Shown piece after piece: positions 1 through 5,470 of a stretch of 64,000 nt of DNA; position 1 is the stretch's first letter; every line of letters starts with the position of its first letter. This DNA comes from a virus (Duplodnaviria; Caudoviricetes), in the IMG/VR virus record IMGVR_UViG_3300013426_000001, positions 1 to 64,000 of that record; one strand, written 5' to 3'. Below the pieces are notes generated by a model that made no database searches, was not told where the DNA came from, and was given only the letters and a program-made list of their open reading frames with translations. A program made the translations under genes and the position numbers.

Positions 1-109
1 GTAGGGCCGTTGCGAAACGGTGGGAGAAAACCCCTTAAATCGAAGTGCCATTCATAGATGATATAGTCTAAGCCCCTTAAAAATATCGGGAAACCGAGGG
101 TACTAACTG
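1..109 (+). ncRNA. 3' part of a group I self-splicing intron (5' part lies upstream of the window)
   Basis: S/P7 element GATGATATAGTCT at 57-69; GNRA hairpins ccgtt-GCGA-aacgg and tcgg-GAAA-ccga (86-97, P9-like); in-frame TAA at 104-106; terminal G109 followed by GGT GAC (Gly-Asp) in the RNAP frame. Confidence 0.8.
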
Positions 110-1246
110 GGTGACATAGCCCTTTCAACAGACAATGAATATTTTTTGAAAGGCGCACACAGAAACGAAAATATAATTACTTATGAAAAAGGTATAGCCC
201 TTAAAGAAGAAATTTCCCAAAGAAATTTCGTAAAAAAAGACCTTATGGGTTTTGGCACAGCGGTCGGTAGTCTTTCCAATACCGCGACAATCATTTACGC
301 GATGGCAGGGATTTTCAACAAACCCGAGCAAGAGCCGCAACGCCAAGAATTATACACGCGAATAAAGCTTCTTCGCGAATACGTTGGGCAGGAAATTGAC
401 AGAGCAAAGCTTGGAATAAAACAGCAGAAACTTCCCGTCGAATGGAGAAAGCACGTCAAAGTAAACGAAGACGATACAGACGAAGTAAAAGCGGAAAAGT
501 ATAAACACAACTCGATGGTTATTTGTAAAAAGCCGTATTTCTTCCGTTATCTTTACCCCGAACTCAACAAAAAGTTTAAGCAGTTCGAAAATGGGTACAA
601 CATCGTGTCGAAGGATATGTTTGGAATTAAGTTCAAAAAACTTCTCGCGAAATCCGATAAAACGGAAGCGGAGAAAATGCTTGTTCGAAGATATCAAAAA
701 TACTCGCCACTGATTGTTTCCAACTGCACGATGAACGTTTTGTGCAAAGAATTTGAGAACGTGGATTTCGATATCAAGTTCGGTAAATCGAACGCGAACA
801 TGCTCAATCTTTATCAGAACGAAGGGTTCGAAGTCGACACTTTAATTCTCGCAAAATTTCGCGATGCTTATCGTAAATACAACAATAAAAAGACAGTCCG
901 CGCTCTCGACGACGTTTTCGAAAACAAAGACGACGAAGATGTGAAGAGCATTTACAACCTCGTTCTCGACACGGCAAAAGAGGAAATTCAGGAAGAGATT
1001 TTCGGGTTTGGCTTGGAGCCGAAGAAAATGCTTTTTTACGTCGGGCAGCTTGCAAAGGAATACACAAATTTCAATTGGAGCTTCGTTTGGGATATAATGG
1101 ATTCAATTGTACTCGACGGAGTTGAACAGGGTAAGAGTTACGCCCCAGTTCGTTCGGAAGACGGCACGGAATATCTCGGCGAAAAGTTTGTGCTTAAACA
1201 AGTCGTAAAGAAACCAGAAGGGGAGGTTATAACCAATGTTGAATAA
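110..1246 (+). CDS. yonO: YonO-like single-subunit phage RNA polymerase, 3' exon (GDIALSTDNEYFLKGAHR...)
   Basis: Frame is open from 110, upstream of the TTG at 146 in the track. GD fits the end of DxDGD; downstream motifs VGSLSNTAT, GQEIDRAK, KPYFFRYLYP and CTMNVLC resemble YonO/RdRP-like two-barrel polymerases; same position as yonO before the late cluster. Confidence 0.8.
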   Translation, partial: GDIALSTDNEYFLKGAHRNENIITYEKGIALKEEISQRNFVKKDLMGFGTAVGSLSNTATIIYAMAGIFNKPEQEPQRQELYTRIKLLREYVGQEIDRAKLGIKQQKLPVEWRKHVKVNEDDTDEVKAEKYKHNSMVICKKPYFFRYLYPELNKKFKQFENGYNIVSKDMFGIKFKKLLAKSDKTEAEKMLVRRYQKYSPLIVSNCTMNVLCKEFENVDFDIKFGKSNANMLNLYQNEGFEVDTLILAKFRDAYRKYNNKKTVRALDDVFENKDDEDVKSIYNLVLDTAKEEIQEEIFGFGLEPKKMLFYVGQLAKEYTNFNWSFVWDIMDSIVLDGVEQGKSYAPVRSEDGTEYLGEKFVLKQVVKKPEGEVITNVE

Positions 1247-2650: not shown

Positions 2651-3853
2651 ATGATAGATTTCGAAGATATAGAGTATAAGCGTTTAGATGATGAAACCGA
2701 AGACGATTATATTCTTCGTATATGCGGTTTAAAAGAAGATAAGCAACTTTTCTGGGATGAGGTTGCTCGTATTATAAACAAAGAACTTGACCTCAATTAC
2801 ACAGAAAGTAGATATAGAAAACTGTATTCCGCATATAAAAAAGGAAAGGAAGAAGTTGAAAAAGAAGTTGTCGAGTTTTCTCCCGAAGAAGTAGAAACTC
2901 GTGAAAAATATGCAAACTCTTGCGATAAAATCGCTTATTCGAGATTGATGAGGCAAGATGCGCGTTTCGAGCGTTTTTATAAATTGGTCGGGGAGCAGAT
3001 TTCTCAATTACCTCCGCCGCAATTCTTAAACGAAAATAAAATAAATTCTTATGTCGATAATGATAAAGAACACGTTCTGTGTTTTGCGGATTTGCATATC
3101 GGAGCAAAGTTCACTTCGATAAACAATAGTTATTCAATACAAGAAGCTCAAAACAGATTTGAAAAAGCACTTGCTTATTGTCGTGATTATGTTTCTAAAA
3201 ACAATGTCAAAAAATTAACGGTTTTAAGTCTCGGTGACGAGATACAGGGAATGCTCAGAATCAGCGATATGCGCCTCAATGAAAAATGTGTTGTAGATGC
3301 GTTTGTGTTTGCTGAACGTCTTATCGCAAATTTCTTAAATGAACTTTCTAAGTATTGTTATGTTGATTACAAAATGGTAGTTTATTCCAATCATAATCAG
3401 AATAGATATTTGGGGACAAAAGCCTCCGAACTTGCTGGCGAAGATATGGGTAAAATTCTTTATGGATACCTGACTGATGTTTTAGCACTGAATGACAGAA
3501 TAACCGTTTATGCGAACGAGGAAGCTGATTATACCGAATTTAAAATATTCGATTTTAACTTCATAATGCTTCATGGACATCAGATAAATAATATTCAGAA
3601 TGCAATTAAAGATTTGTCAAATACGCACCATAAATTTTACGATTATGTAATTCTTGGACATACACATTCGTTGAAAGAATATCCTGGAGGCGAGGGCGAG
3701 CATTACAATATGGAAGTACTTGTTGCGCCGAGTGTTTGTGGTAGTGATCCTTATGCCGATAAGTTGCAAGTTGGAAGTAAAGCTGGAATGGTAATATTCG
3801 AATTTGATAAAAAATATGGGTATACCGACAAACATAATATAATTTTGAATTAA
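2651..3853 (+). CDS. Calcineurin-like metallophosphoesterase (SPbeta YonJ-like position)
   Basis: Motifs ADLHIG, LGDEIQG, SNH, HGH, GHTH. Confidence 0.85.
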   Translation: MIDFEDIEYKRLDDETEDDYILRICGLKEDKQLFWDEVARIINKELDLNYTESRYRKLYSAYKKGKEEVEKEVVEFSPEEVETREKYANSCDKIAYSRLMRQDARFERFYKLVGEQISQLPPPQFLNENKINSYVDNDKEHVLCFADLHIGAKFTSINNSYSIQEAQNRFEKALAYCRDYVSKNNVKKLTVLSLGDEIQGMLRISDMRLNEKCVVDAFVFAERLIANFLNELSKYCYVDYKMVVYSNHNQNRYLGTKASELAGEDMGKILYGYLTDVLALNDRITVYANEEADYTEFKIFDFNFIMLHGHQINNIQNAIKDLSNTHHKFYDYVILGHTHSLKEYPGGEGEHYNMEVLVAPSVCGSDPYADKLQVGSKAGMVIFEFDKKYGYTDKHNIILN

Positions 3854-4003: not shown

Positions 4004-5470
4004 ATGAAAATTTACGATATTAATAAAGAAGAGTTAATTGATTATTATGTAAATAAACAGCATAGCATTAAAGAATGTGCTGAGTATTTTAAAACTAACT
4101 ATACTCATATTTGCACTGTTTTAAAGGGATATGGAATAAAAAAGAATAAGTTGATTGTAAATAAAAAAGTTACGATTTTCCATCATATAGATAAGGATGA
4201 ATTTACTCAATATTATGTTATTGAAAATCATACGAGAGAAGAGTCAGCAAAACATTTTGGCTGTAGCAAATCAACAATAGAAAGATTTATATCTAAAAAT
4301 AACATAAATAAATCAGAAGATAAAATTAGAGAAATACTTAGAACACCTAAAAAATATATTGTTGATAAATTTGAATTATATGAATACTATAAGGTTCAAA
4401 AACATACTCAGGTAGAGTGCGCAAAACACTTTAATGTTCCAAAAAATATTATAAGAGATAATATAAAAAGAAATGGGTGGGAATTTAATGAGTTTGTACC
4501 AAAGTCTCCAAATATAGACGAGTTGTATGATTATTATGTAGTTCAAAATCACAGTAATGATGAAACGGCTGAATATTTTAATATAAGCCCGTCGACTATT
4601 TGGAGAGTAATGCGAGAGAATGATTTGGAAAAATCTAAGAAATTAGTTGCTGAAACTCGCAAAAATACGTGTTTAAATAAATATGGTGTCGAAAGTACCT
4701 CTCAAGTTTCTGAATTTAGAGAAAAAGCAAAAGAAACAATGAAGAGAGAGTATGGTTCCGAAAACCCAATGGATGTTCCTGAATTTAAAGAAAAGATAAA
4801 AAAGACATGTTTGCGGAAATATGGGGTAGATTGTGTTTTTAAAGTAAAAGAAATTCATGACAAATGTATAGAAAATAGTCGCAAATCTTTAATTGAAAAA
4901 TACGGCGTTCCTTACACGTCTTGGATTGGTAGAAGTGATGAATATATTTCCATTGTATCGTCTGAAGATTCTTTTAGAAATTTTATAATTAAAAACGAGT
5001 TAAAAACAAAAAAGGATATTTGCGAAGCATTAGGATTGAGCGCAAGCTGTGCGTTAGATTATATAAATAAATATAGCGCATGGGATTTATTAGACAAAAA
5101 CGTATCTCAGCCAGAAGAAGATTTTTACAAGTATTTGTGTAAAAAATATGGAGAGGAAGATATATTTAGAGAGTATAACGAAGATCCAAGATATCCTTTT
5201 AGGTGTGATTTTTATATAAAATCAATAGACACATTTGTTGAATTAAATTTATATATTACACATGGAGTTAAACCATATGTCGCAGACGATCCAGAATGTG
5301 TTGAGTATTTAAAGCTTTATAAAGAGAGAGCTGAAACGCAGAGTATTTATTATTCTGTAATAGACAATTGGACTGTCCGCGATGTATTAAAAATAAAAAC
5401 AGCAAAAGACAATAATCTTAAATATATAATGTATTATAAAAACGATAATTTATACGATGGCAGGGTTTAA
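4004..5470 (+). CDS. Free-standing homing-type endonuclease: repeated HTH-like modules, KYGV repeats, C-terminal PD-(D/E)XK/Vsr-like domain
   Basis: Four ELxxYYxxxxHxxxExAxxF repeats; KYGVE/KYGVD repeats; SQPEE...RYPFRCDFYI...FVELN...THG; AT-rich, with own promoter and terminator. Confidence 0.75.
   Translation: MKIYDINKEELIDYYVNKQHSIKECAEYFKTNYTHICTVLKGYGIKKNKLIVNKKVTIFHHIDKDEFTQYYVIENHTREESAKHFGCSKSTIERFISKNNINKSEDKIREILRTPKKYIVDKFELYEYYKVQKHTQVECAKHFNVPKNIIRDNIKRNGWEFNEFVPKSPNIDELYDYYVVQNHSNDETAEYFNISPSTIWRVMRENDLEKSKKLVAETRKNTCLNKYGVESTSQVSEFREKAKETMKREYGSENPMDVPEFKEKIKKTCLRKYGVDCVFKVKEIHDKCIENSRKSLIEKYGVPYTSWIGRSDEYISIVSSEDSFRNFIIKNELKTKKDICEALGLSASCALDYINKYSAWDLLDKNVSQPEEDFYKYLCKKYGEEDIFREYNEDPRYPFRCDFYIKSIDTFVELNLYITHGVKPYVADDPECVEYLKLYKERAETQSIYYSVIDNWTVRDVLKIKTAKDNNLKYIMYYKNDNLYDGRV

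Follow-up and report, generated by a model that had tools for sequence, protein, structure and literature searches.

In this gut phage, the gene of a YonO/QDE-1-type RNA polymerase is, with high confidence, interrupted by a mobile self-splicing group I intron of the IA type, residing between the second aspartate and the glycine of the catalytic motif D-F-D-G-D. The gene layout, the exact junctions, the ribozyme core with its covariation and the identity of the polymerase are established here; splicing in vivo, the activity of the endonuclease and the role in late transcription are what we infer. Only the 3′ end of the element lies in the analyzed stretch of DNA (“the window”, 64,000 nt), from which a group I intron within the DxDGD motif of a YonO-like RNA polymerase had originally been predicted. 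Judging from the sequence, both the observation and its reading hold. The S-like string GATGATATAGTCT is present at window 57–69, the GNRA-capped P9-like hairpin (CGG-GAAA-CCG) at 87–96 and the in-frame stop (TAA), which makes read-through translation impossible, at 104–106; G109 is followed from 110 by GGT GAC ATA GCC, i.e., G-D-I-A-L-S-T-D-N in the frame of the polymerase ORF.

The window represents bases 1–64,000 of a single contig of 138,523 bp, the first 77 nt of which are identical to the last 77 nt. Hence, the assembly is circularly closed, and it is the tail of the contig (locus L001) that precedes window base 1. Three related loci (L007, L008 and L009) are contiguous over the join and match it base for base, so the join is real. 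In the tail, an ORF starting at 135745 ends with ...KHSDSDFD followed by KQLSK and a stop; then come about 190 nt devoid of ORFs, a 265-codon ORF (TTG start, AAGGAGGTG just upstream) and 41 nt leading to window base 1.

All features of the locus reside on the plus strand. Exon 1 of the polymerase gene (contig 135745–137415) comprises 557 codons, the last of them encoding ...SDSD-F-D. The 5′ part of the intron (contig 137416–138446) is outside the window in the same circular contig, and its 3′ end (nt 1032–1140 of 1,140) occupies window 1–109, as supported by the contig closure, the contiguity of L007 and L008 and the match of the RF00028 model on L007 (see below). Exon 2 (window 110–1246; 378 codons and a stop) begins with G-D (GGT GAC), so the spliced product amounts to 935 aa (557 + 378 codons). 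The upstream sequence contained what the original prediction had called for, namely a polymerase 5′ exon ending with D-F-D, its last codon being GAT and its last base the expected U (UUCGAU), together with the 5′ half of a group I core (P1 with a U·G pair, P3, P4–P6); there was no intact DxDGD in the contig tail. The TTG at window 146–148, an ORF start by the start-codon rule, had rightly been doubted as the true coding start, since the homology continues upstream to 110.

The intron-less allele L011 (90% amino acid identity) pinpoints the junction, being uninterrupted and reading ...SDADFDGDLCF.... With exon 1 of this phage ending in TTC GAT at contig 137415 and exon 2 beginning at window 110, the predicted spliced junction would be ...GAUUUCGAU joined to GGUGACAUAGCC... 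(GGUGAC in RNA). By comparison with L011, splicing would rebuild D-F-D/G-D, as anticipated, and the aspartate triad of this polymerase exists only after splicing. Locus L007 harbors an ORF-less intron of 297 nt with identical ends, 95.6% identical to the core of the intron studied here; L008 and L009 possess the same 1,140-nt intron with a LAGLIDADG ORF and identical ends. The terminal G (omega-G) at window 109, marking the 3′ splice site, is the same intron end in L007, L008, L009 and L003. A 5′ splice site after SDSD, six bases upstream, seemingly fits the MAFFT alignment and is ruled out by L011, which places the site after D-F-D. Of the other types of insertion, an intein is ruled out by the in-frame stops in the insert and a group II intron by the structure.

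The ribozyme is assembled from elements on both sides of the contig join. The guide GTCGAA (contig 137424–29) pairs with the last six exon bases, UUCGAU; the resulting P1, where UUCGAU/AA faces UU-GUCGAA with U·G at the cut site, is recovered in the minimum free energy (MFE) fold, and the guide follows the changes of the exon sequence in other hosts and at every insertion site. The P3 5′ strand AAUGGUG (contig 137436–42), supported by covariation, pairs with UGCCAUU at window 46–52, five of the seven pairs changing on both sides among 19 relatives, and this pairing gives the P3/P7 pseudoknot. Covariation also supports P4 (contig 137510–15 and 137543–48). In the R element (contig 138414–23), GACUA at 138419–23 pairs with UAGUC at window 64–68, the 3′ strand of P7, which is located in the S element GAUAUAGUCU (window 60–69); P7 is 100% paired and displays two compensatory pairs. 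MFE folds contain a P7.2-region hairpin with a GNRA loop, CCGUU-GCGA-AACGG (window 7–20), and both P7.1 and P7.2 are predicted by MFE folding between the P7 5′ strand and the P3 3′ strand, in a region matching the introns of phage Twort. P9 (window 74–100) consists of an outer helix, CCC (74–76)/GGG (98–100), and the inner hairpin CGG-GAAA-CCG (87–96), invariant in the intron family; the P9 of the intron from Clostridium phage c-st differs, with CAUG-GAAA-CAUG in place of CGG-GAAA-CCG. By these sequence features, the intron can be assigned to subgroup IA of the Gram-positive-phage type.

The core was evaluated in an alignment (A2) of 19 compact related introns, where P3, P4, P7 and P9 were taken as the core. 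As a pseudoknot, these helices have 98.5% of the alignment cells paired vs. 30–38% in slid controls; nine pairs change on both sides (five in P3, two each in P4 and P7), and none of 500 shuffles reached the covariation score. Pseudoknot-free MFE folds recover P1, the long-range P3, P4–P6, P7.1, P7.2 and P9 (z = −2.25). The true assignment of P3 came from covariation. Two other candidates proved to be wrong: CAGGG(G)A with UCCCUUG, bases that belong to P4, and the P3 of the Rfam model on GUUUCGGC, a strand which pairs locally in a covarying hairpin.

The check with covariance models suggested originally gave a mixed outcome. The group I model RF00028 was the top match on the ORF-less allele L007 (31.1 bits, E = 2.5e-6, full model, correct strand) and on the 317-nt insert of c-st (20.4 bits), both scores being below the curated gathering cut-off of 50 bits, which is a threshold for annotation and does not define the class. 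These matches were obtained only from short scans of ORF-less inserts. With the ORF present or in larger stretches, the model found nothing. In the E-value mode, no group I match emerged from window 1–400 or the ORF-containing contig tail; L003 and L004 scanned together (11.7 kb) gave none either. At gathering scores, the whole window yielded no Rfam match, since only the last 109 nt of the intron are inside it.

Two features set this ribozyme apart. Its P8, located between the 3′ strands of P3 and P7, is reduced to CAUAGAUG (window 53–61, at most 2 bp), the same as in L007, L008 and L009, whereas the P8 of the relatives comprises 5–9 bp; as a consequence, self-splicing could be weak or require a helper. 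The P10 pairing of this intron is weak as well. Another feature is the presence, in 18 of the 19 relatives in alignment A2, of two hairpins (27–71 nt) between the P3 5′ strand and J3/4, the second of them often displaying the conserved loop AGGAAAUG. In this phage, the two-hairpin region corresponds to contig 137443–137507, outside the window. A literature search for an insertion between P3 and P4 of group I introns found no description of one. It is conceivable, though rather doubtful, that the intron belongs to an undescribed structural variant of phage group I introns with two hairpins within the P3 loop, and that the variant, in the copy of this phage, also works with an almost deleted P8; such a domain might compensate for P8 and aid the lineage in colonizing the catalytic motifs of YonO-type genes at no fewer than four sites.

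The identity of the interrupted gene was inferred from sequence and structure alike. In tblastn, exon 1 matched the yonO gene of phage SPbeta (E = 6e-29, 28% identity over 77% of the query) and similar genes of Bacillus, Clostridium and Enterocloster phages; exon 2 matched these genes farther downstream. When 1.84 billion representative proteins were scanned, 1,351 related clusters were retrieved. The residues R509-x-P511 and D556-x-D558-x-D560 are invariant in 53 full-length relatives, as is I654-D655-x-x-K658, corresponding to residues 96–100 of exon 2; the R-x-P and D-x-D-x-D residues, motifs of the beta′-type barrel, match the eight-residue signature described for two-barrel polymerases (PMC2919709). 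The Pfam RdRP family gave a weak match (E = 0.0075, below the cut-off); searches with the full-length polymerase in Pfam and, by sequence, in PDB returned no useful match. The AF2 model of the intron-less allele L011, 90% identical, was obtained with a pLDDT of 90.6 and a pTM of 0.88. Its top Foldseek matches were the plant RDR2 and the fungal QDE-1 (E from 1e-17 to 1e-15, ~900 columns), followed by single-chain two-barrel polymerases of phages (P74 gp62, P32 gp64 and the crAss phi14:2 polymerase). The host gene is thus a YonO/QDE-1-type two-barrel single-chain RNA polymerase. Compared with L008, exon 1 is 94% identical in protein and 85% in DNA; in four or more independent contigs, both exons stay open and are kept by purifying selection.

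Taken together, the following course of events can be proposed. The primary transcript would fold so that the guide GUCGAA pairs with the last exon bases UUCGAU, with U·G as a wobble pair where cleavage takes place. Along with P4–P6, the core with its P3/P7 pseudoknot would form, a 16-bp stem holding the endonuclease ORF aside in P6. Free guanosine would then attack after the U, the terminal G109 would direct the ligation of the exons, and the 935-aa polymerase with the intact aspartate triad would result. Without splicing, no active polymerase can be made, since the translation of exon 1 terminates within the intron, six codons in, and exon 2 lacks a start of its own at G-D.

The intron harbors a LAGLIDADG ORF (contig 137608–138405, plus strand), which is looped out of P6: it takes the place of the P6 hairpin, flanked by a perfect inverted repeat of 16 bp that includes the stop codon of the ORF. 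The translation contains two LAGLIDADG motifs in one chain (..LGFLWADGY.. and ..IRGYFDGNG..), each with an acidic residue, and its N-terminus is Cys-rich. The protein matched Pfam LAGLIDADG_3 (PF14528; 26.9 bits vs. the cut-off of 22.5) and the endonuclease family phrog_4645 (E = 2e-38); a sequence search in PDB revealed no relative of it among solved structures. The presence of the intron is polymorphic among the relatives, and the exon flanks are mosaic. Relative to L008, the 120 nt adjoining the intron are 95–98% identical against a background of 85%; relative to L007, the identity of the flanks drops to 63–72% against a background of 91%. Such a mosaic looks like the signature left by homing. 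Most likely, the LAGLIDADG protein cuts intron-less alleles of co-infecting relatives at the site of the intron, so that the intron would be copied in.

Two further ORFs of the window were noted. The 400-aa ORF at window 2651–3853 displays, in its translation, motifs of calcineurin-type metallophosphoesterases (DLHIG, GDEIQG and GHTH). The 488-aa ORF at window 4004–5470 contains four tandem N-terminal repeats of ~60 aa resembling helix-turn-helix modules (..Y(Y)V..N/KHS..E.A..F..S..TI.R..) and is possibly a free-standing homing-endonuclease-like gene.

The intron occurs once in this genome, and so does its P9 module ATATCGGGnnACCGAGGGTA (once in 138.5 kb). The module recurs in no fewer than 112 viral contigs, and the features seen at the start of the window are more than a coincidence; 317 annotated phage records match the compact intron, most of them from Staphylococcus, Enterococcus, Listeria, Bacillus and Clostridium phages. 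Many of the loci retrieved with the P9 module turned out to be YonO-type genes, where the junctions were resolved with the aid of intron-less guides. Four insertion sites emerged. Site A1, GAT/TTC (D/FDGD), is occupied in L038 and L080; site A2, GAC T/TC GAT, in L010, L012, L083, L053, L077 and L095; and site A3, TTC GAT/GGN, in this phage as well as in L003, L004 (c-st), L007–L009, L030, L058, L097, L105 and L109. Since A1 and A2 are 6 and 5 nt upstream of the site of this phage, three insertion points are found within 6 nt, and the introns at A1 and A2 each possess their own matching guide sequence. Site B, GCG AT/A GAT, is in the invariant I-D-x-x-K motif 96 codons downstream, with the junctions resolved in L027 and L080; in L038, L055, L063, L104, L118 and L126, the gene is interrupted near site B at an approximate position. 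The coordinates of the site-B introns are L027:2092–3323, L080:3477–3858 and L038:2698–3845. For the 3′ junction in L038, every placement leaves either A as the last intron base or an extra residue, and no placement with a terminal G was found. Some YonO-type genes contain introns at both the aspartate triad and the I-D motif. The introns of the related genes carry LAGLIDADG ORFs, HNH + NUMOD4 ORFs or GIY-YIG-like + NUMOD3 ORFs, or are ORF-less. Of the top 150 representative proteins, 13 terminate at D-x-D, and another two begin immediately behind it.

Known phage genomes provide further examples. The polymerase gene of the cultured Enterocloster phage CB457P1 (L128, OP172753.1; 242–3769) is interrupted at A3 and B, and its three pieces (242–1744, 2270–2557 and 3056–3769) are annotated as three hypothetical proteins; phage PMBT24 (L005), 98% identical to CB457P1, has one whole gene encoding an 831-aa polymerase. 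The published paper on CB457P1 and PMBT24 never mentions introns. In the PMBT24 paper, an unrelated ORF is reported to interrupt the tape-measure gene of CB457P1, which may point to a further intron. In Clostridium phage c-st (L004, AP008983), an ORF-less group I intron of 317 nt (4160–4476) at M-D-M-D/G-D separates CST179 and CST178, annotated in 2005 as the N-terminal half of YonO and a hypothetical protein. A further separate piece in c-st is CST177, annotated as “YonO C-ter only”. Contigs L067, L088 and L121 have SPbeta-like yonO genes (QFDNDGDKALII) with an unbroken triad, but contain the P9 module of the intron farther downstream, at a distance of at least several hundred nt. The site-B exon sequence GCGAT is matched by a GTCGC guide in L067 and L121, so yonO may be interrupted by site-B introns in SPbeta-like phages of Bacillus.

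Other explanations of the interrupted gene should be weighed as well. The polymerase could be a disrupted pseudogene left behind by an endonuclease-carrying insertion with a dead ribozyme, as the Rfam score below the cut-off and the vestigial P8 might suggest. At the same time, the exons are open and under purifying selection in the four or more independent contigs (94% amino acid vs. 85% nucleotide identity), and the core helices as well as the nucleotides at both splice sites are intact. Moreover, the recurrence of the same stop point in 13 of the top 150 representatives fits a tolerated spliced element, not repeated gene death, so this explanation appears highly improbable. The annotation in GenBank, where c-st has a “YonO-homolog (N-ter only)” and a “(C-ter only)” and CB457P1 has three hypothetical proteins, lends itself to yet another view: a naturally split enzyme of two polypeptides that assemble, comparable to the beta′ subunits that are split in jumbo phages; the endonuclease gene between the two parts would be free-standing, and no splicing would take place. 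This is hardly credible, given that the break is inside a metal-binding motif of five residues, and exon 2 has neither a start codon nor a ribosome-binding site at G-D, while TTG 146, the earliest start available, would drop the third aspartate. The spacer, for its part, has a covarying group I core with exact U/G boundaries, and near-identical relatives possess the gene in one piece.

A further alternative accepts a genuine intron which splices inefficiently alone, its P8 being vestigial, and relies on a helper protein; this could be a host factor or the LAGLIDADG protein in the role of a maturase. LAGLIDADG maturases are known in fungal mitochondria, and the reduction of P8 to CAUAGAUG in this phage, L007, L008 and L009, as compared with 5–9 bp in the relatives, speaks for such a requirement. 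Still, the exons of L007 are intact and conserved, although its intron has the same P8-poor core and lacks any ORF; hence, a maturase encoded in cis cannot be required. Overall, the need for a helper is considered improbable, and the self-splicing intron is retained as the preferred reading.

The intron belongs to a familiar ribozyme lineage. The introns I1–I3 in orf142 of Staphylococcus phage Twort are related to introns of Herelleviridae and SPO1-like phages. A comparison of the sequences revealed that they share with the intron studied here the J/P3 lead-in UCGAAAAA, the P4–P6 segment UAA-ACAGGG-AAGCC...GGUAAUCCUGUG, the R element CAACGACUA and the S element GAUAUAGUCU, along with P7.1/P7.2 and a GAAA-capped P9; in both systems, several introns are possible in one gene. 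However, the P3 5′ strand of Twort I1 and I2, which have been studied experimentally, leads directly into J3/4 and P4 without the extra hairpins, the host gene is different, and the P8 of Twort is at least 5 bp long, while it is almost absent from the intron of this phage. The td intron of phage T4, with its I-TevI ORF looped out of P6, also interrupts a conserved part of the gene of an essential enzyme. The looping of the endonuclease ORF out of P6 of a group I intron is thus common to both, but the endonuclease of td is of the GIY-YIG type, the gene encodes thymidylate synthase, and the host is Gram-negative.

As for the polymerase, the closest studied counterpart is YonO of SPbeta, a homologous single-chain two-barrel enzyme with the same aspartate triad (Forrest et al. 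2017, PMC5467207), although the identity is about 28% and yonO is uninterrupted at the triad. Replacing the three aspartates of YonO with asparagine abolishes its activity, and the enzyme transcribes late genes (PMC5467207). By analogy, the polymerase of this phage probably drives late genes, and its late transcription would depend on splicing, as the original prediction had it.

Intron insertions in phage RNA polymerase genes have been reported in PhiPA3, where the gp210 intron is situated in the gene of the virion RNA polymerase beta-like subunit gp211/gp209 (Birkholz et al. 2024, PMC11620839), and in phage 201phi2-1, where a mobile intron separates gp273 from gp274 (PMC2919709). Like the present case, these are putative group I introns with a homing endonuclease in a phage RNA polymerase gene, adjoining the aspartates of the catalytic center, and the endonuclease targets the intron-less site in relatives (here, homing is suggested by the mosaic flanks). 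Unlike it, they reside in the beta-like subunit of the multisubunit polymerase of Pseudomonas jumbo phages, not in a single-chain YonO/QDE-1-type enzyme with a beta′-type aspartate triad, and encode an HNH nickase instead of a LAGLIDADG protein. Inter-phage competition has been demonstrated for PhiPA3.

A literature search for introns in YonO-type genes found no paper. The finding is, in essence, one more case of a well-known habit of phages, which is widespread in the family of YonO-type genes and goes unannotated there, and its mechanism is textbook; what is added here is the exact anatomy of this copy, the map of four sites, a cultured control pair and two peculiarities of the ribozyme. As regards annotation, gene callers and GenBank records of cultured phages (c-st, CB457P1) divide the polymerase into two or three hypothetical proteins with no stated relation. 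The catalytic motif is absent from every one of these pieces, and the transcription enzyme encoded by the phage itself is therefore overlooked. For the phage, the expression of an enzyme probably driving the late genes would be conditional on the self-splicing of RNA. At the level of the family, the codons of the aspartate triad represent a crowded landing site for selfish introns with three types of endonucleases. The case of PhiPA3, where an intron endonuclease attacks the polymerase gene of a rival, would thereby be extended to the single-chain polymerases of gut Bacillota phages.
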